From Candidatus Hodarchaeum mangrovi (GTDB lineage Archaea > Asgardarchaeota > Heimdallarchaeia > Hodarchaeales > Hodarchaeaceae), in contig JAEOUE010000042.1 in the NCBI GenBank assembly GCA_016839515.1, positions 1-11,197 of the forward strand: a DNA stretch of 11,197 bases, written 5' to 3'. A model generated the notes under the pieces. It was not told where the DNA came from, did not search any database, and saw only the letters and a program-made list of their open reading frames with translations. This document shows, in pieces, positions 1 through 11,197 of the stretch (position 1 is the first letter of the stretch; every line of letters begins with the position of its first letter). A program made the translations under genes and the position numbers.

Positions 1-1841
1 CGTTTTGCTTTTTCAAGATTGAATGCAACTTTATCACTATCAGGGAGAAAAATATATGCACCATCGCTCTCGATTTCCATTGGTATTATAAATTCCAGAG
101 TATCAGCTAAGATTCCACCTTCACTTCTTGTTCTTTTAGTTTCTACTTCAAGGGTTGAGCTTTTTTGTCTTAATTTGAGTTGTCGAATTGATTCATGAAT
201 AATCTTCGCTCCAAATTGCATAGAAAGAATTCCATCTTCAAAAACACCTATCCCGCTAAGATTTTGTTCATATGCTAGAATATAAAGGATTTCATCAACA
301 GTTGCATCCGCCGATACTAGAGAGCTTCCAATCATCTCTTTATGTCCCATTCTGCTTTGTAACTGAAAACTAATTTTAGCATTAAGACCATCTTCTATTA
401 AATCAACTTTAAATCCCATTCCTTGAGTATTGGGTAAAGCTATAAATCCATCACTACTCTCAACTTCTATAGGTATTTCCATATGTGCAACTTCGGCAGG
501 TTTTGTAATGATTTCTTTGATTTTCCTTGGTTCTACTTCTTGTATAAGATACTTTGTGTTAATTTCCCTTATGCTAAGATTTGGTTTTTCAACTGCTAAT
601 ACGAGACATTTAACAATATTTTCCTCCCTTAATTCACCTTTAAGGTAGGTTGAAAATAATTCGAGAAGCTTATTGGTGTCAAAAGTTTTGGTTTTTTCTT
701 CTCCCTGTGATTTTCTAATAAAAGGCAAATATTTTAAGAATATATCAAGAACTAATGGAACAGGCATTCCTGAAGTAACAGCCATCTCAAATAATTGATC
801 CCACTCGTTTTCGATCAGCTCAGCTGCATTTTCTGCCTCAATTTGATAAAAATTTATAAGATGAGTTAGTTTTGTTGGATCAACCTGTGCGAATTGATTT
901 AAAACAGTAGTATCCTCATCTACAGGTTCAGAAATGTCTAAATTTTGTTCTATTTCTAATTCTCTGATATGAGGGATTTCTGTATGTGCTAAAACTGTCT
1001 CTGAAATAGACTCCTCTGAAGCAGCCTTCCCTAGAAAAACTTTGTTTTCATTGGGAGCACCATTCTCCGTTTTTAATGCATGTTTCATGATAAATTGAAG
1101 TTTCTGTAAGACTTCTGGATCACCAGCCATTTTTTGAGTAATAGGTGCTATTGGAACTTTTCTTACAATCTCTTCCTTTGGTTCGATTAAGGTCATAGGA
1201 GTTGTATGATATTCCTCAATTTCTCCTATTTCTCTTCCTTCAACGAAATCACTCTTTGTAAGCTCAGGAATGGTTAATTCAAAAATACGACCGAAAGAAT
1301 CTATCACACTTTCAGGTCGAAAAATAGTTGTTCTAAAAAATCTTAAGGGAGAATCTTTGTACTCAAGCTGAAATTGTTCCTTTAATTGTTCATGAATAGA
1401 TTCATAATTTGGTCTATTTCTGATTAAATCATTTTTATGTAGAAAGACAAAAACATTTGTTTCAGGTGAAAATGTTTTTAATTTCTCAATACATGATGTA
1501 AAATATTGAATTGCATTATTACGAGAGGTTTTATTAGCTACATCAATTAAAAATATGAATATTTTGACATTACTAAAGACAAAAGGACTAAATCCTGTTA
1601 AAAACCTTTTTAAGAATATTTTTTGACCCCCCAAGTCTACAATCGTAACTGGCGAGTCATTAACCGTAAGAGAGAGTCTTTCATAGTTAATTGTGGCACT
1701 AAGCTTGTTTACATCCTCAGTTTGTTGTTTTAGAAAGAATATACGTTTAACTGCGGTCTTTCCAGCCTCACTCAATCCTGCAATTAAAATTTTATAGCCA
1801 AGATGCTGAGAAATCTCAGTTTCTGATACCCAACGAGACAT
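1..1841 (-). CDS. Multidomain Rag/Gtr-like small GTPase: G domain, acidic linker, helical domain, repeated C-terminal alpha/beta module; 3' end runs off the window (>613 aa)
   Basis: Absent from the ORF track. Manual translation from ATG 1841 gives 613 stop-free codons to the edge (MSRWVSETEISQHLGYKILIAGLSEAGKTAVKRIFF...). Motifs: G1 GLSEAGKT (aa22-29), G2 ATINY, G3 DLGGQ (aa69-73), G4 HKND (aa135-138), G5 RTTIF. His-led G4 and the DxGGQ context are Rag/Gtr-like. Colinear with the 9919..11197 ORF. Confidence 0.92.
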   Translation of the reverse strand, partial: MSRWVSETEISQHLGYKILIAGLSEAGKTAVKRIFFLKQQTEDVNKLSATINYERLSLTVNDSPVTIVDLGGQKIFLKRFLTGFSPFVFSNVKIFIFLIDVANKTSRNNAIQYFTSCIEKLKTFSPETNVFVFLHKNDLIRNRPNYESIHEQLKEQFQLEYKDSPLRFFRTTIFRPESVIDSFGRIFELTIPELTKSDFVEGREIGEIEEYHTTPMTLIEPKEEIVRKVPIAPITQKMAGDPEVLQKLQFIMKHALKTENGAPNENKVFLGKAASEESISETVLAHTEIPHIRELEIEQNLDISEPVDEDTTVLNQFAQVDPTKLTHLINFYQIEAENAAELIENEWDQLFEMAVTSGMPVPLVLDIFLKYLPFIRKSQGEEKTKTFDTNKLLELFSTYLKGELREENIVKCLVLAVEKPNLSIREINTKYLIQEVEPRKIKEIITKPAEVAHMEIPIEVESSDGFIALPNTQGMGFKVDLIEDGLNAKISFQLQSRMGHKEMIGSSLVSADATVDEILYILAYEQNLSGIGVFEDGILSMQFGAKIIHESIRQLKLRQKSSTLEVETKRTRSEGGILADTLEFIIPMEIESDGAYIFLPDSDKVAFNLEKAK

Positions 1842-1864
1842 TTTCGGTCGATTCCCTGATAATC

Positions 1865-1889
1865 AATTATAAACCATAGGTTTTTAATT
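1865..1889 (-). promoter_or_regulatory. Candidate TATA box (TTTATAA on minus, 1873..1867) inside an imperfect palindrome; duplicated at 1945..1969
   Basis: AATTATAAACC-ATA-GGTTTTTAATT has arms matching 10/11. TTTATAA ends 25 nt upstream of ATG 1841, spacing compatible with a near-leaderless archaeal transcript. Confidence 0.5.
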
Positions 1890-1897
1890 TATGTATT

Positions 1898-1921
1898 TTA
1901 TCCAGATACCCAATGAGACAT
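1898..1921 (-). other. 7-codon mini-ORF MSHWVSG* created by the duplicated gene start
   Basis: Minus strand ATG TCT CAT TGG GTA TCT GGA TAA versus the true start ATG TCT CGT TGG GTA TCA GAA. Translation is not demonstrated. Confidence 0.4.
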
Positions 1922-2053
1922 TTTCGGTCTATTCTATGATAATCAATTATAAACCATAGGTTTTTAATTTATGTATTATAACAAGTTTTAATAAATTAAT
2001 CTAAATATATTATAGGGAACTCATACTCCAAGAAATAGTAATTTTAATTAAAC

Positions 2054-2060
2054 TTTATAA
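2054..2060 (+). promoter_or_regulatory. Candidate archaeal TATA box for the Rag-roadblock gene
   Basis: TTTATAA about 45-55 nt upstream of the candidate starts. The AT-rich background makes this weak. Confidence 0.3.
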
Positions 2061-2104
2061 GATACAATATATGGATAAGTAATTTTTCATCTAGAAGGAA
2101 GAAT

Positions 2105-3010
2105 GTGATTACTATGGAACTTTCTAATCAACCCAACAAAGTATTATTTATGGGTCTTGGAGCGTCCGGGAAATCAAGTATACGGTCAATTGTATTTGAA
2201 GGAAAGTCGGTAAATGATGTGAAAGATTATCATGCGACAATTAACTATACACGTTCTACGAAAAATATTATAGATGCTCCATTCCAGATCTTTGATTGCG
2301 GTGGTCAAGAATCTTTTATCTCTGTATTTGTTGGGGAACAAGCTGAATTTATTTTTAGCGATGTAGCTGTTTTGATTTGGGTAATTGATGTCTCAAATTT
2401 CGATGCAGTCTCTACTTCAAAATTTTATTTTGATCTTGCTTTAAAAAAATTAGCTGCTTATTCTGAACGAGCATCTGTGTTTTGTTTACTTCATAAAATG
2501 GATTTATTACTCCCTGATATGAAAAATCAAGTTATAGAGACTGTAAAAGTCTATTTTGCACCAATTTCTGGTTTAAAGGTTCAATATCGACCAACATCGA
2601 TCTATGACCAATCTATTTATAGCGTGGTTGGTGAAATCATCCAAACACTAATACTTCAAAGTTCAAAAGCACAGACTGTATCAGAGGCTATTGAAGAATT
2701 TCTCAAATCAAATGTTGAAATGTCAGGAATAGCAGTGTATACAGATGAAGGTCTTCCTGTTTTTGAAGGAGGAGAGACAGACAGAATAATTCTTCCAGCA
2801 AATCTTTGGTTAGCCTCTTATGATAGATTGTCTAGCGAGTACCAACAGGAGGAGATTAAAACAGTTCTTGAAACAAACAATTATATTTTTGTCTTCCATG
2901 TCATTAAATCACAGCTCCTCCTTTCTGGAATAGCAAAAAAGGTTGCTCCATTACAATATGTTTTGGTTAAAATGGAGCAATTAGGTGAAATATTAAATCA
3001 ACTTTTATAA
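2105..3010 (+). CDS. Gtr1/RagA-like small GTPase with C-terminal roadblock/LC7 domain
   Basis: KVLFMGLGASGKSSIRSIVF (G1), ATINY (G2), FDCGGQESF (G3), FCLLHKMDL (G4) and PTSIYDQSIY (G5) parallel yeast Gtr1 as recalled (LLMGRSGSGKSSMRSIIF, WDCGGQ, LLHKMDL, PTSIWDESLY). aa~190-301 follows the roadblock pattern (helix, GIAVYTDEGLPV, helix, three strands, helix). ATG 2114 is an equally plausible start. Confidence 0.93.
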   Translation: MITMELSNQPNKVLFMGLGASGKSSIRSIVFEGKSVNDVKDYHATINYTRSTKNIIDAPFQIFDCGGQESFISVFVGEQAEFIFSDVAVLIWVIDVSNFDAVSTSKFYFDLALKKLAAYSERASVFCLLHKMDLLLPDMKNQVIETVKVYFAPISGLKVQYRPTSIYDQSIYSVVGEIIQTLILQSSKAQTVSEAIEEFLKSNVEMSGIAVYTDEGLPVFEGGETDRIILPANLWLASYDRLSSEYQQEEIKTVLETNNYIFVFHVIKSQLLLSGIAKKVAPLQYVLVKMEQLGEILNQLL

Positions 3011-3039
3011 AATACCATGTTTTGACGAATAAACTACCT

Positions 3040-4377
3040 TTATGAGGATTTTGATTCACTTTCTTCTTCAGTCATATATTTCCCAAAAAGATTCTGAATA
3101 TCATCCATTGCAATTTGTAATTCTTCTTGGGGGATACCTTTTGATCTTTCAAACCATCCTCTTTTAATCGGAGATTTAGAATCATCATGATAGCTTATTA
3201 AGTCTGTTGCATCATTAAATACATCACGTAATTCAGGAATGCGTGGAAGGCCAAAAAGTAATAATAATGATGATTTTTCTCTTAGTGGATCATCATAAGC
3301 TACAAATGAAGGCTGAATAGAACCACCTTTAACTAAATACGGCGTTAGAATTTTCTTCAAATAAGCTGAATATTCAATTTTTGAGATATCTTTATTTCCA
3401 GTTATTATAGAATAAACTGAACCAGCATTAGGTTTAGTGTCTATATCAGTCAAAGAACAATGATTTACGGTGTATCTAGCAGCCAATGCCATCTGTTTAT
3501 CAATTCTTCCGTATTCAGGGATGAAATACATGTCTTCAAAGAAACATGGTACAACAACAGGATCCAGTCTTCGCGAATAATCAGCTAAATCAGTTGTTGG
3601 GAGGACTTTTTTTCCAGGTTCTTGAATACTAGGGGACAGAATCGCTTCTATCGTACGTAAAGCAAGTGGATTAACCAATTCAGTGAATTCAACATTAGTT
3701 TCAGATTTTAATTTATCATAATTAATGGCAAGATTTGAAGAATCTATTCCTACTGATTGATCTAATAGACCACTAGCACTCCCCTCTCTCCATTCAATAA
3801 CTCTTTTTAACATTGTTTTATTGGATAACAGAAAGATGAGATTGGGGCCTTTTTTTGGTTCAAGTTGGTTTCGTAATAATGTGGATAGAGACCAAATTGA
3901 ATTAATTGCTTCTGATGATTGGTTTTCAAAAGGCAAAACACCAAAAACATAAATAAAAATACGTCTTTCATCAGAAAATTGATTGTGAAGTAGTTCAACA
4001 AGGGCAGGTGTTCCACCACAGCCTGTTCCCCCTCCAAGACTTGTTAGTATTATGAAACCAGAAACTCCTTCATAACCCAGATTCTGTAACTGATTTAGTA
4101 TTAAATCACGATTTTTCATCACTAAATCATAACCTTCCCGAAATTTTCCTCCTACTCCTATTTCCTCATCAGAATACATTAATGTATTTCTTACTGGAAG
4201 TGAATATTGAGTTCGGGTTTTCATTAGGTCTGTTTTGTCTGTATTCATAATTAAATATTCTCGTATTCTTGTTGATCCTTGTCTTTTTTCTTGTTGAACA
4301 TAAGATCCTACAAGGTTGGAACCACATTCTCCTATTCCTATAACAAATACATCAGCTTCTCTACTAATATCTGACAT
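3040..4377 (-). CDS. Tubulin/FtsZ-superfamily GTPase, divergent tubulin-like protein
   Basis: T1 GIGECGSN, T2 NTD, T3 GVGGKFREG, T4 signature SLGGGTGCG (aa113-121), VLPF, T7 TDLADY, and a C-terminal WF..G....E...A..D...L...Y segment resembling tubulin H11'-H12, followed by a short acidic tail. Confidence 0.93.
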   Translation of the reverse strand: MSDISREADVFVIGIGECGSNLVGSYVQQEKRQGSTRIREYLIMNTDKTDLMKTRTQYSLPVRNTLMYSDEEIGVGGKFREGYDLVMKNRDLILNQLQNLGYEGVSGFIILTSLGGGTGCGGTPALVELLHNQFSDERRIFIYVFGVLPFENQSSEAINSIWSLSTLLRNQLEPKKGPNLIFLLSNKTMLKRVIEWREGSASGLLDQSVGIDSSNLAINYDKLKSETNVEFTELVNPLALRTIEAILSPSIQEPGKKVLPTTDLADYSRRLDPVVVPCFFEDMYFIPEYGRIDKQMALAARYTVNHCSLTDIDTKPNAGSVYSIITGNKDISKIEYSAYLKKILTPYLVKGGSIQPSFVAYDDPLREKSSLLLLFGLPRIPELRDVFNDATDLISYHDDSKSPIKRGWFERSKGIPQEELQIAMDDIQNLFGKYMTEEESESKSS

Positions 4378-4384
4378 TTAATTT

Positions 4385-4389
4385 ACCTC
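4385..4389 (-). promoter_or_regulatory. Shine-Dalgarno-like GAGGT for the tubulin-like gene
   Basis: Minus strand reads TAA-GAGGT-AAATTAA-ATG: directly after the upstream stop, 7-nt spacer, 12-bp intergenic gap. Confidence 0.6.
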
Positions 4390-7300
4390 TTACCTATTCA
4401 TTACATAATAATCTAATGCAAATGACAAATATTGAACCATTGGTTGGTGGGAGTATGTCTCTTCAATTTCTCTTTTCGCATTTGCGATATAAGCTACTTT
4501 TACTTCATGGATTGGGGTTGGTTTATAATCACTAATAAAAAGAAATAATAATCGATGCCATTTTGAAATTTCAGGTAGGCTTTCTTGTAACCATTGGGTT
4601 TTTAATTTCGAAATTGTTGCAAGCAAATTATATACCTCATTTAGATTGCTTTCTGTACTTAGTTTTACTCTTGCATCAACTAGCTCTTTCAATGGAAAGA
4701 TTTCTTTCGAACATTCATTTAATTTATAATCAAACACAGCCTGAATACTTTTATAATATGGAAAAATAGGATTATTTAAAAGATCATTTAGATATTGATC
4801 ATAATTCTTTATTTCTAGTTCTCTAATTGCTTCAAGGAATAACTTAGATGCTCTCATCACTTCTATTGTAGAATTAGCTATAAGATCAAAGGACCAAAAT
4901 TGTATAGCATTTCGAGCTTGTTTAATTCTTACCACGTGTGGCAATAATGTGTTTTGTGTATTTTTCCACCCTAAAGCTTGTATAAAATCGAGTATTCTTC
5001 CAGCTGTAGTATTTGCAGTATCGATAATTTCAAATAAAGCTTTTTGTAAATCCTGGTTCTTCAAAATTTTGTCTAATTCGACAAAAGACTGTGTAAGCAT
5101 TTCAATAGACATCATATCTGTGGAATCCGCCTGAATCAATTGAGTAAATACTTCAATTTGTTCTCCAACTAGATTTTGTATATTAGTTATTCCTAGTGAT
5201 TGGAGTTCGCTAATTCTTCTAAGAAGATTCTTACTTGCGATACTGAGAAGTTCCATTAACTTAGCTAATAATATATATTCATAATCATGTATCGTTTCTA
5301 CAATTAAACGATTAATTGTTTCTAATGTCTGGCCTTTAGGAGTTATAGTACTCTCAAGAAAGGTGTGAACCTTATGAACTTCAGGTGAAACATCTCCCAT
5401 AACTTCTATAATCCTAGGAAGACTAACGGTGACTTTATTATAAAACAATGCTTTAAGTTTCTCTAATCCTTCTAGAGCTTTATTAGTAGCATTATTTATG
5501 TAGAATTCAAATTTATTGATAATTTGTTCAATGTCTTTTGTTTGGGATAATTCTGCAATTCCTTGCTCAAGAATAATGAATAATTGATTAAACATCCCTA
5601 AATAATGGCCAGGAAGTGACTTATATTGTTTTAGCCAACCTGATAAAATATCACGACATTTCAACTGAACTAATTCACTACGTTTTGTATTATAGGTATT
5701 TAGACGGAACCATAGCTCTAAGAGCTCTGAATAATCTAAAGCTTCTAAATCTGTCGGTATTTCAAACATTGGGGGAGAACCTACCTCTTGTTTAAAATAT
5801 GTTAGAGCTAATCTACTCGTTTTTTCTACCAACTCAGTCTGTTTCATGCATTCCTCAATCATTGTGTTTTTTGATGAATTCATTATTCTTGAGAACTCAA
5901 AATAGGCTTTAATCATCGCTATTGAGTTTCTAGATGCACTTACTCCAGTTAATTTAGTTATTAAATCATTCTTTTCTTTTCGTAAATCAACTGGAACTTC
6001 TCCTGGTATCATTGGAAAGTTTAAGCCTTCAATCTTATTCTTGAGGTATGAGAGCATTTTTTGTTTCCAATTTTCGATTTCATCAATTTTAATCAGTAGA
6101 TCTGATAACTCTAATTCACTAGCATCTTCCACAAAAGGAGGGCGAGGAACCCCTGGGTCTGATTCAAGCAGTTCCAGTATTGTTACATCCTTAATGTAAT
6201 CTTTAATATATGCAGCAGTTAATGTAACAAATTGTTTATATAAACGGTCATATGACCTTCTATAGAGTAGAAGAGTCTGAATATTAGTCTCGGAAGCCAT
6301 TTTGTCATAAAGTGAATTAAGTTCACCTTGAAAATTAGGTGGAAAACTATCAAGACCTTTTTTCTCTAACCTGCTTGCTATGGTTAATGTATCATTAATT
6401 GCATGTCGGGCTTCTTGAAGAACATTTATTAGCTTATTTTTCCAAACATTAACTGATCTTAAATAATTCAATAATTCTAAAGGACTATCAGTATCAAAAT
6501 TTACAACAGGTGGTTTCAATGAAATCAATGCTTTGGAATCTGAATCTGTAGCGTCAAAACTTAAATTATTACGAATACTTTCACGGATTCTTTCTAAAAA
6601 TTGTCCATAATAAACATGAAATCCTTTTATCTTTTCAAATACATCTAAAATATTTTCTGAAGCTTCTTGAACCCGAATCGCATGTTCTTTTGCATTCGAA
6701 ATCAGTGTGTTTGGTATTACTACCCCTTCCTGAAAGAGTCCTTCATTTACTTGGTATAATTCATCCGTTGATGCCATCCTTTTAATTCCAATAATTACAT
6801 TCGATTCCCAAGTATGAATTTGTTCTGAGAGATTAGTTAAATCTGAGATTGAAGCATTTACCATTGAAACTTCTGGTGGTGAAGGAATTAAAGTATCAGA
6901 AAGTGTTGGAAAAAGTCCTCTTACCTGTGTAATGATATTATTAACTGTAGTTCGTGTTCGTGTTATTTCAGATTTGAGAATGGTACCAAATTTAACAATA
7001 AATGTAGAAAGTGATCTATGCAATTGATTAAGCTCATAGATGGTTTTTACTTCCTCAATTCCTTTGGTTAATTCTTTAATACCTTGATATTCACTAATAT
7101 CAGAAATCAAATTCTTTTTTTCTGCTTCTTGGACTGAATAATACAGTTCATGAGCCTGTTGAAGCAATTTGTCTTGAACAATGTTTCTTGAAGAATCTAA
7201 GTACTGATCTATTGATTCTCCTTCCTTTTTAAGATCAAAATAAGTGTTTATTAATCCTTTTGGGTCATAAGTGGATAAAATTTCTTCATTTAAATTCCGA

Positions 7301-7821
7301 GTTTTTTTCAAAGATTCTGAATCTAGTTTTACTAAATCAGAATACAACATTGTTTTCGATTTATTTTCTTCCAAAATATTCAAGCATAATTCCTTTACTT
7401 GAGTCTTAGAATTTTCTAATATCCTTTCAAAATTATTTAAAAATATATTAATGGCATTGAGGTCTGCTGTTAAAGGTAAATTAATCGCTCGGATTGAGTT
7501 TGAAGCTTGAGGTGCTACAGTTGCAAGGCTATCTGCTTGTTTGTCAAGTTCAGGTTTTAAAAAATCTATAATTGATTTAAATATACATTCCAAGCATTTT
7601 TCTTCAGCTCGTTGAATATCTAATTGTAATTGTTCAACTTGTTTTTTTAATCCTCTTTTTGCCAACATTCCTGCTGATTCTAGCTCTTTCTCGGTTTGAG
7701 AGTATTGTTGTACTAATTTAGAAAAGGAACTAAGTTCTTTCGAACAAACAGGAGAACTAAAATATTTATTTAATCTGGTAAGTAACTTAGATATTTCTTC
7801 TAACATTGAATAAACATCCAC
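4390..7821 (-). CDS. Large (1143 aa) alpha-helical repeat / coiled-coil protein of unknown function
   Basis: Long open frame rich in L/I/E/K with amphipathic helical patterning and a ~123-aa periodic PP...W motif. No Walker motifs or TM segments seen. Start is GTG 7821 or ATG 7806; an in-frame TGA lies just upstream. Confidence 0.88.
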   Translation of the reverse strand: MDVYSMLEEISKLLTRLNKYFSSPVCSKELSSFSKLVQQYSQTEKELESAGMLAKRGLKKQVEQLQLDIQRAEEKCLECIFKSIIDFLKPELDKQADSLATVAPQASNSIRAINLPLTADLNAINIFLNNFERILENSKTQVKELCLNILEENKSKTMLYSDLVKLDSESLKKTRNLNEEILSTYDPKGLINTYFDLKKEGESIDQYLDSSRNIVQDKLLQQAHELYYSVQEAEKKNLISDISEYQGIKELTKGIEEVKTIYELNQLHRSLSTFIVKFGTILKSEITRTRTTVNNIITQVRGLFPTLSDTLIPSPPEVSMVNASISDLTNLSEQIHTWESNVIIGIKRMASTDELYQVNEGLFQEGVVIPNTLISNAKEHAIRVQEASENILDVFEKIKGFHVYYGQFLERIRESIRNNLSFDATDSDSKALISLKPPVVNFDTDSPLELLNYLRSVNVWKNKLINVLQEARHAINDTLTIASRLEKKGLDSFPPNFQGELNSLYDKMASETNIQTLLLYRRSYDRLYKQFVTLTAAYIKDYIKDVTILELLESDPGVPRPPFVEDASELELSDLLIKIDEIENWKQKMLSYLKNKIEGLNFPMIPGEVPVDLRKEKNDLITKLTGVSASRNSIAMIKAYFEFSRIMNSSKNTMIEECMKQTELVEKTSRLALTYFKQEVGSPPMFEIPTDLEALDYSELLELWFRLNTYNTKRSELVQLKCRDILSGWLKQYKSLPGHYLGMFNQLFIILEQGIAELSQTKDIEQIINKFEFYINNATNKALEGLEKLKALFYNKVTVSLPRIIEVMGDVSPEVHKVHTFLESTITPKGQTLETINRLIVETIHDYEYILLAKLMELLSIASKNLLRRISELQSLGITNIQNLVGEQIEVFTQLIQADSTDMMSIEMLTQSFVELDKILKNQDLQKALFEIIDTANTTAGRILDFIQALGWKNTQNTLLPHVVRIKQARNAIQFWSFDLIANSTIEVMRASKLFLEAIRELEIKNYDQYLNDLLNNPIFPYYKSIQAVFDYKLNECSKEIFPLKELVDARVKLSTESNLNEVYNLLATISKLKTQWLQESLPEISKWHRLLFLFISDYKPTPIHEVKVAYIANAKREIEETYSHQPMVQYLSFALDYYVMNR

Positions 7822-7862
7822 TTTGAAATCAATCGAAGTAATACTTTTTCTAGCTGCTCAAA

Positions 7863-8795
7863 TTATAATGTTGTTGATGATTGTATTTGTTCCCATGCTA
7901 ACGAACATCTGATAATATATTCTGCAAGATCTTTTACATAGCCTTTAATTGTCTTTCTCATGTTTAAATCTACTAAACGAAAAGGTATATTTAGTAAATC
8001 CTCTTCAGAAGTGCCTAATATTGAATTTGATAATTCATTTAATTTTATAGAGATTTGGGTGGACATAATTGAAACATATTTTGCCCAATCATAACTTATG
8101 ATAATGCCTAATGATAAACGATGGGTTTGTCCTTTATCCAGCCATTTTTTTGGGCTGTAAAGGAAAATTGAAAACGATTGGTTTGTAAGATCGATATTTA
8201 ATGCAGAGGATCCTAAATCTTTGCCAAAATCTTTTTCATCACGTTCATTATCATCAATATACTTCTCAACAAATAAAGAAAACATGTCTAATATTTGTTT
8301 TTTATCTACTTCATTCATTTCATAAGTTACTTCCCAAAGAGAAGACGTTGAACCCTGAAATGCTGAAAAAAAATCAATAATTACTGAAATCTTTGCCTTC
8401 TTTAGGTTGGAATAGACTTCTTCATAAGGGATAGTCTTACCTAGTTCTAATAAACTTTGAAAAGCGGATTCATCTGCTTCAAAGATTGATGAAAAATCAG
8501 AACCTAGAGTCTGAGATACATCTTCTTTTCCGCCAAAAGCCATTGTGGCAATATCCTCAAGATCCATTTCTTGAAGCTGCTGCTTTTGTTCTTCTCTTTC
8601 TTGAATTTCTGAAAATAAAGATGAAACCATTGAGGAATCATAAAATAATTGATAAATCCTTAAAAGAAGTCCATTTAAGCTAGTTTCATCTATCTCTTCT
8701 ATATATTCTCTGAGTATTGAACGCATTACAACATGTTTTGCCATACGTGTATTTCGAACTTTATCTTCTATCTCCTCTGTCACAAATTTAGACAT
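7863..8795 (-). CDS. Hypothetical protein; C-terminal half is a possible longin/uDENN-like domain
   Basis: 310-aa ORF 41 bp upstream of the 1143-aa gene. aa~135-262 reads strand-FFSAFQGS, helix, strands, FSIFLY..loop..KG...RLSLGIII, long helix. The CDS is secure; the fold is inferred. Confidence 0.75.
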   Translation of the reverse strand: MSKFVTEEIEDKVRNTRMAKHVVMRSILREYIEEIDETSLNGLLLRIYQLFYDSSMVSSLFSEIQEREEQKQQLQEMDLEDIATMAFGGKEDVSQTLGSDFSSIFEADESAFQSLLELGKTIPYEEVYSNLKKAKISVIIDFFSAFQGSTSSLWEVTYEMNEVDKKQILDMFSLFVEKYIDDNERDEKDFGKDLGSSALNIDLTNQSFSIFLYSPKKWLDKGQTHRLSLGIIISYDWAKYVSIMSTQISIKLNELSNSILGTSEEDLLNIPFRLVDLNMRKTIKGYVKDLAEYIIRCSLAWEQIQSSTTL

Positions 8796-9016
8796 GGTAA
8801 TTCATCTAGCCCAAATCAAGAAGTTTTGAAAGGTCCATGGGAATATCTGAAGAGTACTTTTCTTAATTGATATCTTCGGTGATTTAATAGTCATACTATA
8901 TTTAAAAATATTGCAATTGAAATTCAAGACCTTATTTACTCCTCGATTTGATGTTTTTTATCAAAACTCACTATTAATGTCGGAAGTAAAAAATTTCTAG
9001 AAATCTATGCGATTTT

Positions 9017-9056
9017 AAAAAAATAGAAATTGTAAAAAATTATTCAAAAAATAAAA
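9017..9056 (-). terminator. Oligo-T tracts downstream of the phosphoesterase gene (possible archaeal terminator)
   Basis: Plus-strand A runs at 9017-9023, 9034-9039 and 9046-9051 give U tracts 30-65 nt after the stop at 9082. Confidence 0.3.
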
Positions 9057-9081
9057 GGTTAGAATAACGTTTTTTAAGGTT

Positions 9082-9837
9082 CTATCTTCCTAAAAAGAGT
9101 CGTTCCCCTAACAGTTTAGGTAATCCATACTCATTTAAACGATTAACAACTGAATCAATTAGATAATCTACTCTTATAATTTTAGCATCCATTTTATTTA
9201 AATCAATGACCATGTATGAAGCTTTAGGATTTTCATCTCTTGGTTGGCCAATAGATCCTGGGTTTACCATTATAAGTTTTTTATCAGAAAATATTTTTTC
9301 TTGAATAAAGGGAATATGTGTATGACCAAGAACAAGTATATCAATCCCTAAATTAACCATATAATCAAAAAGATTTTCCTGCTTTTTAGAATTGGCATGA
9401 ATATATTCTGTTAAAGGATATTGAGGGGATCCATGAACTAAACATATCTCTTGGGAAAAATCCAAATGTCGTGTGGTAATCAGTTGAGGTAATTGAGCAA
9501 TTTCCCAGCGTAACTCCAATGGGATTTGTGTTATCTGCCAATTGATTGATGAAACTGCTAAAGGATTAGTAGGAGGTGGTGTAATCCCTTGTCCGATATA
9601 ATGATCATGATTTCCTTTCACCAGTTTTGTAATAATTTTATTTTTTAAAATCAGTTCAGCGCATTCTTTAGGATCAGGGCCATATCCACAAAGATCTCCA
9701 ATAAAATATATTTCTTTAATTTCAGGATAATTTATTGTCATATCATTGAGAACAGCTTCAAGGGCAGTGAGGTTACTATGAACATCAGAGATCAACGCTA
9801 GTGTATACAAGATTGATACCTCATTATATTTATCCAT
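9082..9837 (-). CDS. Calcineurin-like metallophosphoesterase (MJ0912/YfcE-like)
   Basis: Complete motif set: SDVHSN, GDLCGYGP, GNHD, HGSP, GHTH, NPGSIGQPRD. The likelier start is TTG at 9810, preceded by GAGGT (9822..9818) with a 7-nt spacer, the same geometry as at the tubulin-like gene. Confidence 0.95.
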   Translation of the reverse strand: MDKYNEVSILYTLALISDVHSNLTALEAVLNDMTINYPEIKEIYFIGDLCGYGPDPKECAELILKNKIITKLVKGNHDHYIGQGITPPPTNPLAVSSINWQITQIPLELRWEIAQLPQLITTRHLDFSQEICLVHGSPQYPLTEYIHANSKKQENLFDYMVNLGIDILVLGHTHIPFIQEKIFSDKKLIMVNPGSIGQPRDENPKASYMVIDLNKMDAKIIRVDYLIDSVVNRLNEYGLPKLLGERLFLGR

Positions 9838-9843
9838 AATAAT

Positions 9844-9918
9844 GCATAAATGATTTATTTTTAATGTTATTTTATTTATGCTATTTAATAATAATTAAAT
9901 ATTGACTATTATTATTAA
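9844..9918. repeat. Two adjacent inverted repeats in the 81-bp intergenic region
   Basis: GCATAAAT (9844-9851) / ATTTATGC (9874-9881) and TTAATAATAAT (9885-9895) / ATTATTATTAA (9908-9918). The second begins immediately after the upstream stop codon. Low complexity. Confidence 0.4.
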
Positions 9919-11197
9919 TCATTTATCTGAGTTCATTTCGCTTTCTATAATCTTTGCAATATTTATCCCTTTAATTTCTGAACTCGAGGTCACATTATCT
10001 TTATGCATTTGAAATAATGCTTCGTGAATTATTCGAGCAGTAAGATATATAGCACGTTGTCCACCAGTAATAAAGCCCAATGCCTCTAAATTCATTTGAA
10101 AGGATAAAAGATACATTAACTCCTTGTTTGATATAGTACTGGAAATTTTAATTCGATTTACAATCCTATTATTACAATAGAGTGTTAAAAAAATTAGATT
10201 TTCGACCAGAGTAGCTCTAAATCCTAGTCCTTTAGTACTGGGGAGATCTAGAATTCCTTCAACGACTTTAGCTTGAGGGAGAGACTCATCTTGAATGGGT
10301 GTTATAACATCCTCTATTGGCCTTTTAGATTTATCTTTTACTTTCGTTAAATATTTCGAAATGATAGCATCAATACTCATTTTATGTTTCTTTGTAGCAA
10401 AAATAAGACAACTAAAAAGATCATCTTGAGAGATTGATCCCTGTAAGTATGAAGAAAAAAGGTCCAATAGCCTTTCCAAGGATAAAAATTGAATATCCAG
10501 CCCTTTAGATTTGAGAAAGGGAATATATTTAATAATAACATCGCTTACAAGAGGGATGGGAACACCTGCTGTTGCTACCATCTTGAATAGGCTATGGTAT
10601 CCTGAATTTACAATTTCTATTGCTAACTCTGTATCTATGCCAAAATAATCAATCAACGAACTGATTTCTCGATTAATTCTTACCTGTTCAGGAGAGGGTT
10701 TTCCAGATTCGACTAATGAAGTGGGAGGTGGAGCCTCAGAAGAATTGATATGAATTAATTCGGTTTCTTCAACTATTTCTTCAGTAATTACCTCTCTTAA
10801 TGTAGATTGAGAAGTTAATGGCTTCATGGAAGCATCAACAATCGATCCCCTCATTAAGTTTTGTATTCTTTCCAAATAAGCTGGATCCTCTTCATCTAAG
10901 TTTATTACTTTTTTTTCCTCCGGTTTCTTTATCATTTCTGCAGAGAGGATTCTAGGAGTAGAAGTAACCTTATCGCAGTATTCTTCGATTTCACCAATAT
11001 GTTGTCCATTAACTAGTTCACTTTGACTTAAATCTGGCATTGATAGTTCGATAATTCTTCCAAAACTGTTTGATACCGATTCAGGATTAAAAATTGTTGT
11101 CCTAAAGAATTTTATTTCTTTTTTGCATTCTACCTGAAATTCTTCTTTTAATATGTTGTGAATTGTCTCATAATTAGGCCAATGTTCCACTAAATCA
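9919..11197 (-). CDS. Paralogue of the <1..1841 multidomain Rag-like GTPase; 5' end lies beyond the window
   Basis: The frame is open to the edge (GAT TTA GTG GAA CAT = DLVEH). DLVEHWPNYETIHNILKEEFQVE..FFRTTIFNPESV aligns with (HKN)DLIRNRPNYESIHEQLKEQFQLE..FFRTTIFRPESV, so the window cuts the gene inside G4 and the track's GTG 11190 is an internal Val. Confidence 0.9.
   Translation of the reverse strand, partial: DLVEHWPNYETIHNILKEEFQVECKKEIKFFRTTIFNPESVSNSFGRIIELSMPDLSQSELVNGQHIGEIEEYCDKVTSTPRILSAEMIKKPEEKKVINLDEEDPAYLERIQNLMRGSIVDASMKPLTSQSTLREVITEEIVEETELIHINSSEAPPPTSLVESGKPSPEQVRINREISSLIDYFGIDTELAIEIVNSGYHSLFKMVATAGVPIPLVSDVIIKYIPFLKSKGLDIQFLSLERLLDLFSSYLQGSISQDDLFSCLIFATKKHKMSIDAIISKYLTKVKDKSKRPIEDVITPIQDESLPQAKVVEGILDLPSTKGLGFRATLVENLIFLTLYCNNRIVNRIKISSTISNKELMYLLSFQMNLEALGFITGGQRAIYLTARIIHEALFQMHKDNVTSSSEIKGINIAKIIESEMNSDK

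Follow-up and report, generated by a model that had tools for sequence, protein, structure and literature searches.

Here, we describe a conserved gene cassette encoding a CetZ-like tubulin and a large helical partner, as found in duplicated form on contig JAEOUE010000042.1 of the Asgard archaeon Candidatus Hodarchaeum mangrovi (11,197 nucleotides, analysed over its entire length and called the window below; features and coordinates in Table 1). The window encodes a tubulin/FtsZ-superfamily protein (gene C), an all-alpha protein of 1143 amino acids (aa) (gene D) and an orphan (gene E), next to the Rag-like GTPase genes A and B. We consider it probable, with appreciable room for doubt, that this locus is a lineage-specific duplicate of a conserved Asgard cassette, made up of the CetZ-like tubulin and its dedicated helical partner, that was inserted beside an independent Rag pair. 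A previous reading of the letters alone (the sequence-only reading) had proposed a small-GTPase-controlled filament plus scaffold module here; the tubulin-partner half of that proposal is supported, and the Rag-control half is weakened, as the adjacency belongs to the paralogue alone and most simply goes back to one insertion. Hodarchaeales are described, in the literature as excerpted, as the closest relatives of eukaryotes. The window corresponds to the complete contig C186 in a genome (4.0 Mb, 91% complete) that is coded G000; C28, C235 and C238 are other contigs of the same genome, G057-G077 and similar codes denote relatives, and L numbers denote their loci.

Neighbour clustering recovered a single ancestral gene order in 14 of 14 loci: a large all-alpha scaffold (870-1170 aa), the CetZ-like tubulin, and a third protein of ~300-380 aa. 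A set of 80 loci from Hod-, Thor-, Hermod-, Borr- and Sif-archaeal metagenome-assembled genomes (MAGs), largely the same genomes as in the 14-locus set and so not independent of it, placed the scaffold directly upstream of the tubulin-like gene in 64/67 assessable ancestral-type loci, further upstream in the other three, and the third gene directly downstream in 71/71. The only split by insertion seen is at L040 10638-14906 (genome G057; identical with L068, a Heimdallarchaeota MAG), where a 1202-aa open reading frame (ORF) lies between the scaffold and tubulin genes. Of 400 genomes from across the phylum, 127 have the tubulin-like family, including 21/21 in the own genus and 76/89 in one large family group; with this query it was found in 0/31 genomes of one family of the same class and in 0/135 of the largest family.

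The genome of the window carries a second scaffold-tubulin pair on C238 (scaffold 27% and tubulin 55% identical to the window pair), followed by genes of 348 and 273 aa, and neither the third-gene family nor the fourth, own-genus gene matches a Pfam family. Copies of the window type of C (82-87% identity) occur in G060, G066, G067, G071, G072, G073, G076 and the own genome, with a fragment in G062; short tubulin fragments in G059, G068 and G077 (61-64% identity), assignable to neither the window nor the ancestral type, were not counted. Window-type cassettes have no third gene (0/7) and carry E in front instead. E as a relocated ancestral third gene was ruled out, the two families giving an hhalign probability of 0.2. 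A tree of 41 rows unites the window-type copies in a 100/100 clade with a stem of 1.31; their sister group is the order's own ancestral type, and both lie inside a 100/99 clade. Because the window type groups with the order's own copies, we take it to be a fast-evolving duplicate and not an import.

That grouping also bears on an explanation in which F-E-D-C would be accessory, horizontally moving cargo (a defence or mobile island) and the Rag position an insertion hotspot. Such cargo would fit the patchy occurrence within the genus (9/22 genomes), the long stem of the window-type clade, and the pair of genomes G066 and G074, which have and lack the block, respectively, with ancestral-type tubulins ~0.05 substitutions/site apart. 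Against it stand the placement of the window type among copies of its own order, a GC content that is flat along the window (0.29-0.34), and the lack, in the window, of any visible integrase, transposase, tRNA or flanking repeat (PADLOC and PHROGS were not searched). We judge mobile cargo very unlikely.

Genes E, D and C form a tight co-oriented run. The E-D, D-C and B/C spacers measure 41, 12 and 29 nt in the ORF listing and the sequence, exactly the gaps first read from the letters. On the coding strand of the D-C spacer, GAGGT stands 7 nt ahead of the ATG of C, which suggests an internal ribosome-binding site of the kind typical for a gene inside an operon. The GTG start of D (7806-7821) is doubtful, there being an ATG at codon 6 and orthologues that align only from residue 7-10; if translation begins at that ATG, the E-D spacer may be 56 nt instead of 41. 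Because contigs of other public sequencing runs (X codes) bridge B-C-D (X4 2196-5129, X3 2294-3633) and D-E-F (X4 7007-9577), the gene adjacency is not an assembly artefact, with the proviso that the window itself may derive from one of these runs.

Gene C matches Pfam Tubulin (PF00091) over residues 10-169 at 5.5e-18 (66.4 bits, cut-off 33), which places it in the tubulin/FtsZ superfamily. Searched as a single sequence against the Protein Data Bank (PDB), it matches CetZ best (2.3e-10), with yeast gamma-tubulin as its best eukaryotic match (1.6e-5); a profile of the 17-member C family ranks CetZ (8e-14) above beta-tubulin (1.7e-7) and OdinTubulin (7evb, 6.8e-7), with gamma-tubulin at ~1e-5. 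Three CetZ structures, 4b46, 4b45 and 3zid, outrank beta-tubulin, OdinTubulin, BtubA and gamma-tubulin. We call C CetZ-like, and not CetZ, because only its N-terminal domain aligns (~residues 14-175, or to 235 for 4b45), so that the similarity is not full-length; no solved tubulin, FtsZ or CetZ aligns to the C-terminal domain when the family profile is searched against the PDB (stretches of -2.9 to 1.0 bits). Full-length similarity was likewise not found to the eukaryote-like tubulins (Atub, OdinTubulin, alpha-, beta- and gamma-tubulin), the best match, at 1.7e-7, covering profile positions 76-180 only. The own genome has one canonical FtsZ-like gene (1e-46) and one further copy of the C family.

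The loop GIGECGSN in C is one that we name T1-like by its motif, and GGGTGCG corresponds to the tubulin signature (T4), whose definition we take to be GGGTG[ST]G, with Cys in the Ser/Thr place. A candidate T7 (catalytic) loop, PTTDLAD, is assigned by resemblance to the motif NxDxx[D/E] given in PMC12583498 (this and the other papers cited below are represented by excerpts), with Thr in place of Asn. Because the nucleotide-binding loops and the T7-like aspartate pair are kept, C most likely binds GTP, and to judge from these motifs it most likely also polymerises like other tubulin/FtsZ proteins.

Gene D has no Pfam or NCBIfam match, and Pfam hits at E <= 10 for D and three other scaffold orthologues are noise. 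The AlphaFold2 (AF2) model of D, built from 22 sequences, consists of helices only, with a predicted local distance difference test score (pLDDT) of 82.3 and a predicted template modelling score (pTM) of 0.39. The conserved residues of D cluster towards its C-terminus; within residues 1022-1143, three are invariant (W1088, Y1131 and L1132) and seven nearly so (Y1022, Y1023, V1029, I1041, W1077, H1089 and I1119). In the ESM Atlas, D finds one Thorarchaeota cluster at 0.81, a lead only and probably D's own family. Scanned with a hydrophobic window, C, D, E and the third-gene family showed no stretch that is convincing as a membrane segment.

ESMFold2 predicted a complex between C and residues 640-1143 of D with an interaction prediction score from aligned errors (ipSAE) of 0.70 (runs of 0.70, 0.71 and 0.63), against 0.00 for the best of three controls. 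In calibration the ipSAE mark was reached by 58/80 solved complexes and 2/110 mismatched pairs, counts that are rough since own alignments were used. The runs share at least 50% of contacts, and the partner has a pLDDT of at least 83. On D the interface takes in residues 1022-1029, 1087-1101 and 1118-1143, which make up its invariant patch, and on C residues 195-217 and 284-306. Judged by its distance from the T7-like motif, C 284-306 would comprise the loop and the helix that follow the first strand in the C-terminal domain, an element that forms lateral contacts in tubulin. The modelling supports a C-D complex but does not discriminate between a filament decorated by D and a monomer held by it. 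The proposal from sequence that D is a scaffold or partner of the tubulin is strengthened by this predicted complex together with the strict adjacency of the two genes across the phylum.

In another explanation C would form no filaments at all, and D-C would be a stable stoichiometric complex with C as its GTP-binding subunit, either nucleating or capping in the way of gamma-tubulin on GCP, or serving as a non-cytoskeletal GTPase switch. Several observations are consistent with this: the predicted contact joins the C-terminal domain of D to that of C (284-306), C and D are strictly one-to-one, the single C sequence finds yeast gamma-tubulin as its best eukaryotic match, and GCP chains of the gamma-tubulin ring complex are among the weak Foldseek rows for D (6v69_I, E 0.14, prob 0.33; 9g3x_J, 9g3z_B and 9g3y_J). 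However, Foldseek of D against the PDB returned nothing at E <= 1e-3, and dynein tails stood at the top, above the few GCP4/5 rows (E 0.14-0.41). VIA-align (wide) gave generic helical bundles only (best Z 10.4, root-mean-square deviation 3.4 over 99 residues, model residues 1-106), where Z ~13 is needed for helical proteins to be meaningful, with no GCP in its top 50, and the whole of D matches no Pfam GCP domain (GRIP1/GRIP2). The family profile moreover ranks CetZ and beta-tubulin over gamma-tubulin, and the invariant T7-like aspartates fit polymerisation-activated GTP hydrolysis. A C without filaments is, in our estimate, quite unlikely. The resemblance to gamma-tubulin with its GCP (GRIP-domain) proteins is one of mechanism only: the C-terminal domain of GCP carries gamma-tubulin, and here the C-terminal domain of a large all-helical protein is predicted to hold a tubulin-superfamily subunit, but no significant sequence or fold similarity of D to GCP was found.

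Among known systems, the euryarchaeal CetZ proteins, the best solved relatives of C, have the N-terminal GTPase domain and the GGGTG-type signature in common with it, and are described as cytoskeletal proteins of cell shape, not of division (PMC12583498). C differs from them in its C-terminal domain, which has no detectable CetZ similarity, and in its context of an obligate ~1000-aa partner and a third gene, which is unlike the CetZ context in the excerpts of PMC9871819. A CetZ-like group of Asgardarchaeota, 'Asg.Tub', was reported by Santana-Molina et al. (2023; PMC9871819); its C-termini match no other family, and its neighbours are described as unknown genes, mostly coiled-coil. Compared by description only, unique C-termini and coiled-coil neighbours fit C and D, and the C family is probably Asg.Tub, a tubulin family already in print. 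The excerpts name Heimdallarchaeia and Lokiarchaeia, whereas the relatives of C are Hod-, Thor-, Hermod-, Borr- and Sif-archaeal. The excerpts contain no three-gene cassette, predicted tubulin-scaffold complex, Hodarchaeales paralogue or Rag neighbours. C shares its superfamily with OdinTubulin, AtubA/B and the eukaryotic tubulins, but their matches are weak and partial (profile positions ~70-199), and AtubA/B are encoded as tubulin-tubulin operons (PMC13394414, as excerpted), unlike the tubulin and helical giant found here. A search of the literature (Creative Commons-licensed PubMed Central papers and bioRxiv) yielded no description of the three-gene cassette, the predicted tubulin-scaffold complex or the Rag-tubulin neighbourhood; the cassette as a conserved unit, the predicted complex of C with D and the variant in Hodarchaeales appear to be new.

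The Rag-like genes of the window are A, B and G. Both A (Pfam Gtr1_RagA, 2.2e-30, 106.3 bits, residues 17-194) and B (2.7e-40, 138.7 bits) have a Gtr1_RagA G domain that scores above the Pfam cut-off of 22 bits, and the top solved relatives of B in the PDB search are yeast Gtr1 (3.9e-27) and human RagA (5.7e-23). G aligns to A residues 138-567 (32% identity, 7e-56) and, assigned through this homology to A's tail, is a third long Rag paralogue, with a GTPase domain that lies off the contig, because the alignment begins at A's residue 138. With C as tubulin-like and F as a phosphoesterase, the gene identities proposed from the letters are thus borne out by Pfam, the PDB and the A/G alignment. 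Of the eight strong Gtr1/RagA matches (E <= 1e-20) in the 4.0-Mb genome, two are on this 11-kb contig, with the G tail in addition, so the clustering of Rag genes on the contig is real and not a random coincidence within the genome.

A and B stand side by side, are divergently transcribed and, to judge from their family, probably form a Gtr1/Gtr2-like dimer. For the C-terminal 107 aa of B, from residue 195 to 301, Pfam offers no family at E <= 10, and hhalign finds no similarity between this domain and the tail of A (probability 0.2); the 'roadblock' label put earlier on this third of B is therefore not detectable by sequence, and comes from knowledge of the family. A's tail has a weak GatE-tail-like helical region (residues 318-448; NF003107, 3.7e-9, far under cut-off), with a like region at residues 174-301 of G, and Pfam at E <= 10 gave only noise on either tail. 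The long Rag tails, of ~500 aa (A tail 3-1244; G; C28 12572-14827), align to NF003107 positions ~452-580 (E 4e-9 to 7e-10, far under cut-off). Orthologues of A are 725-751 aa long, and the long-Rag tail is genus-specific (18/21 genus genomes, 0/378 others) and has 1-3 paralogues in each genome.

Tran et al. (2024; PMC10933270, as excerpted) describe one Rag-like pair of strain MK-D1 that is encoded in an operon and predicted by AF2 to form a heterodimer via roadblock domains, and note that small-GTPase genes are generally not in operons with their regulators; a RagGtr clade common to Asgards and eukaryotes has also been reported (bioRxiv 10.1101/2024.02.28.582541, as excerpted). A and B are like the MK-D1 pair and the eukaryotic Rag-Gtr heterodimer in being Gtr1/RagA-family genes placed side by side, and differ from the MK-D1 pair in being divergent rather than an operon and in the ~500-aa genus-specific tail of A with its GatE-tail-like helical region.

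Around the window-type cassette, two arrangements of the Rag genes occur. In G000, G060 and G062 the order is Tub-><-B A->, and the convergence of C on B with a 29-bp gap, as first proposed, is confirmed from the ORF coordinates. In the other orientation, Tub-><-A, B lies beyond A in G066, G067 and G072, no B-type gene stands directly beyond A in G071 and G073 (in G073 a more distant Rag gene is ~3 kb off), and the contig ends inside A in G076. Loci L052 and L054, which end inside or just after B, were set aside. In neither arrangement is a Rag gene co-transcribed with the cassette: the Rag genes converge on it or point away from it. G has no counterpart at this position in G071 or G076.

The neighbourhood check suggested along with the sequence-only reading went against it for the widespread form of the cassette: A/B-type Rag genes are not kept beside that form, and the adjacency is found in one genus only. 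No ancestral-type locus of the 80-locus set has an A/B-type Rag gene within ~10 kb (0/73; 1.14 Mb of flanks), nor does any in a second, largely overlapping set (0/13). Conversely, A/B-like Rag pairs stand without a cassette in G059, G061 and G074 and, in the own genome, on C28, and G069 carries only an A-like gene. Synteny between G066 and G074 extends to both sides of the cassette; C-D-E lies between A and a giant gene in G066, and in G074, a genome 99% complete whose one tubulin-family match is of ancestral type, the giant gene abuts A in the same layout as on C28. This giant gene lies beside the long-Rag gene or Rag pair in several genomes of the genus (C28 3276-12566, L035 52-3432, L053 ~990-8900, L038 ~15780-16440); on C28 it encodes 3096 aa with an N-terminal hydrophobic segment, and it marks the other border of the cassette insertion site. 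Most simply, the duplicated cassette would have been inserted once beside a Rag pair and then inherited, with some losses, and A/B would have been inverted locally at a later time; because the adjacency traces to one insertion, the nine genomes that have it amount to roughly a single event. We reject a phyletic link of the tubulin family with the tail of the long Rags, the distribution of the tail given above being set against 127/400 for the tubulin family.

On the reading that we favour, a duplicated cassette inserted beside an independent Rag pair, E-D-C would be an operon and a diverged extra copy of an ancient Asgard cassette. Its C protein would bind GTP and polymerise as tubulin/FtsZ proteins do, the conserved C-terminal helical domain of D would, as predicted, clamp the C-terminal domain of C, and the ~1000-residue helical body of D might act as an adaptor or spacer between the polymer and something else. 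The ancestral third gene is missing from the window paralogue, whose operon is now headed by the genus-specific orphan E, and A/B would be a separate divergent Rag pair beside which the cassette was inserted in some species of the genus, the adjacency having been inherited since.

Several points weigh against this reading. The polymerisation and GTPase activity of C are predictions from motifs only, its C-terminal domain aligns to no solved relative, and the T7 loop is assigned by motif resemblance. The score of the C-D complex expresses the confidence of a model and is not a measurement. The word 'adaptor' for D is a guess, because its architecture is uncertain (pTM 0.39) and its fold matches are to nothing specific. 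The long-Rag gene A, furthermore, neighbours the window-type tubulin gene in 9/9 genomes (G000, G060, G062 with its fragment, G066, G067, G071, G072, G073 and G076), an adjacency that survived the inversion of A/B; with three Rag-family genes in 11 kb, this exceeds what we would expect of pure chance, and real coupling may exist. E, finally, occurs only in the Rag-adjacent version of the cassette, and residues 124-307 of its AF2 model run alpha, beta-beta, alpha, beta-beta-beta, alpha, beta, alpha (6 sequences; pLDDT 36, unusable for fold search). We take this weakly predicted order to be that of roadblock and longin folds, the longin fold being beta-beta-alpha-beta-beta-beta-alpha-alpha, as a hint only.

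The last of these points lead to an explanation in which the Rag pair A/B (and G) regulates the tubulin-like polymer and E is a longin/roadblock-type platform that links the GTPases to D-C, the whole being a small-GTPase-controlled cytoskeletal system that would have arisen within one Hodarchaeales genus. It would account for the persistence of A beside the tubulin gene in genomes that have diverged (protein identity 55-87%) and in two orientations, for the presence on the contig of two of the genome's eight strong Rag matches together with the G tail, and for the restriction of E, whose C-terminal half has a weakly predicted element order compatible with roadblock or longin, to the Rag-adjacent cassette; both modules also have paralogues elsewhere in the same genome. 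The distribution argues otherwise, as ancestral-type loci lack the Rag genes, Rag pairs such as that of G074 do without the cassette, and the genus-specific Rag tail does not co-vary with the phylum-wide cassette. A single insertion underlies the nine genomes, a local inversion trivially keeps neighbours together, and the genes are convergent or divergent and not co-transcribed with the cassette. E itself shows no similarity to longin or roadblock Pfam models, and its hhalign probabilities against the C-terminal domain of B and the tail of A are 0.1-0.2. Regulation by the Rag pair is in our view unlikely, and a lineage-specific coupling of Rag genes and cassette is possible.

E has no Pfam match (E <= 10), no NCBIfam match and no usable ESM Atlas match, and the 'longin' assignment once made for it finds no sequence link by Pfam, ESM Atlas or hhalign, the element order of the pLDDT-36 model being its sole hint. 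Six orthologues (63-77% identity) were found, only with the window-type cassette, and a search of 1.84e9 (1.84 billion) representative proteins gave six matches, one of them full length. The ratio of nonsynonymous to synonymous substitution rates (dN/dS) is 0.04-0.05 for C, 0.08-0.13 for D and 0.07-0.19 for E, values that are approximate because many pairs have a saturated dS; purifying selection acts on all three genes (0.04-0.19), and E is, by this measure, a real gene.

Gene F, found upstream of E in three genomes (G000, G071 and G076), belongs to the metallophosphoesterase superfamily (Metallophos_2, PF12850, 3.2e-18, 66.6 bits, cut-off 27) and is borderline for the YfcE subfamily, with 54.1 bits for TIGR00040, just below the cut-off of 56.25. 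Seven ORFs are listed in the window, and Rfam has 0 matches in it. The last 41 visible codons of A (window 1-125) are repeated with 100% identity at C235 3-125; C235 is 2 kb long, and since the frame of A runs on there for ~98 codons, C186 and C235 probably join, giving A a length of ~710 aa. Each copy of the 80-bp unit repeated between A and B has an ATG and the first codons of A, the second copy would encode only a 7-residue peptide, and public contigs break at this repeat (1825-1977). One contig in each of runs X1 and X9 joins window position 11190, in the upstream part of G, to 1425 in A, the exact start of the A/G alignment, the shorter side of the junction comprising only 42 letters. The likely cause is a near-identical stretch common to the paralogues A and G, which would also account for the window contig ending there; the junction may otherwise reflect a recombinant or circular form.

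Beyond the cassette, Thorarchaeota-type loci (L044 11551-14207, L045, L046, L051 and L041) have a CoA-binding/succinyl-CoA-ligase-like gene (468 aa) and a flavin mononucleotide-dependent dehydrogenase-like gene, in four loci each. In the own genus only, an Arf-family GTPase gene (~310-320 aa; Pfam Arf 2.8e-33; C238 10907-11866, L039 1339-2262) lies ~3.5 kb from the ancestral cassette in 9/73 ancestral loci, separated from it by a CinA-like gene and a gene encoding 766 aa.

Table 1. Features of the 11,197-nucleotide window, with positions, strand and remarks.
Feature	Position	Strand	Remarks
Gene C, CetZ-like tubulin/FtsZ-superfamily GTPase	3040..4377	-	445 aa, window-type paralogue
T1-like nucleotide loop GIGECGSN in C	4315..4338	-	G14, G16, E17, G19 and N21 invariant in 17/17
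Tubulin signature (T4) GGGTGCG in C	4015..4035	-	invariant in 17/17
Candidate T7 (catalytic) loop PTTDLAD in C	3580..3600	-	P260, D263 and D266 invariant in 17/17
C residues 284-306, main predicted D contact	3460..3528	-	expected error lowest, 1.6-2.1 Å; G290 invariant in family
Gene D, all-alpha 'scaffold'	4390..7821	-	1143 aa, GTG start uncertain
D residues 1022-1143, predicted tubulin-binding domain	4393..4758	-	most conserved part of D
Gene E, orphan	7863..8795	-	310 aa, heads the E-D-C run
Gene A, long Rag-like GTPase	3..1841	-	613 aa visible, runs off contig end
80-bp tandem duplication	1825..1977		1.9 copies, 94% match; in the divergent A/B intergenic region, includes A's start
Gene B, Gtr1/RagA-like GTPase	2105..3010	+	301 aa
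B/C spacer between convergent stop codons	3011..3039		29 bp
Gene F, YfcE-like metallophosphoesterase	9082..9837	-	251 aa
Gene G, tail of third long Rag paralogue	9919..11196	-	425 aa, 5' end off contig

Asgard archaea are the group in which to test how the eukaryotic cytoskeleton, and its control by small GTPases, originated, a question that is still open. At its boldest, the locus would belong to an uncharacterised tubulin-superfamily system of several Asgard classes, in which a polymer-forming GTPase is always paired with a dedicated ~1000-aa all-alpha protein gripping the C-terminal domain of the tubulin, which would make the system a prokaryotic analogue, perhaps even a forerunner, of the tubulin-scaffold complexes of eukaryotes; in Hodarchaeales the duplicate would have gained E, possibly a longin/roadblock-type platform, and become fixed beside a Rag pair, as the first small-GTPase-regulated tubulin-like cytoskeletal module in a prokaryote. 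We think this full version quite improbable. One Hodarchaeales genus nevertheless offers a natural experiment, with versions of the cassette that have and lack Rag neighbours and E, in which a link between Rag proteins and the polymer can be tested; should there be no coupling, an attractive but over-read gene neighbourhood is corrected. Apart from FtsZ and Atub, the cassette represents a third kind of Asgard tubulin-superfamily system, with an obligate large partner in several classes that is predicted to bind the tubulin-like protein, and C and D make a defined two-protein pair to express and image.

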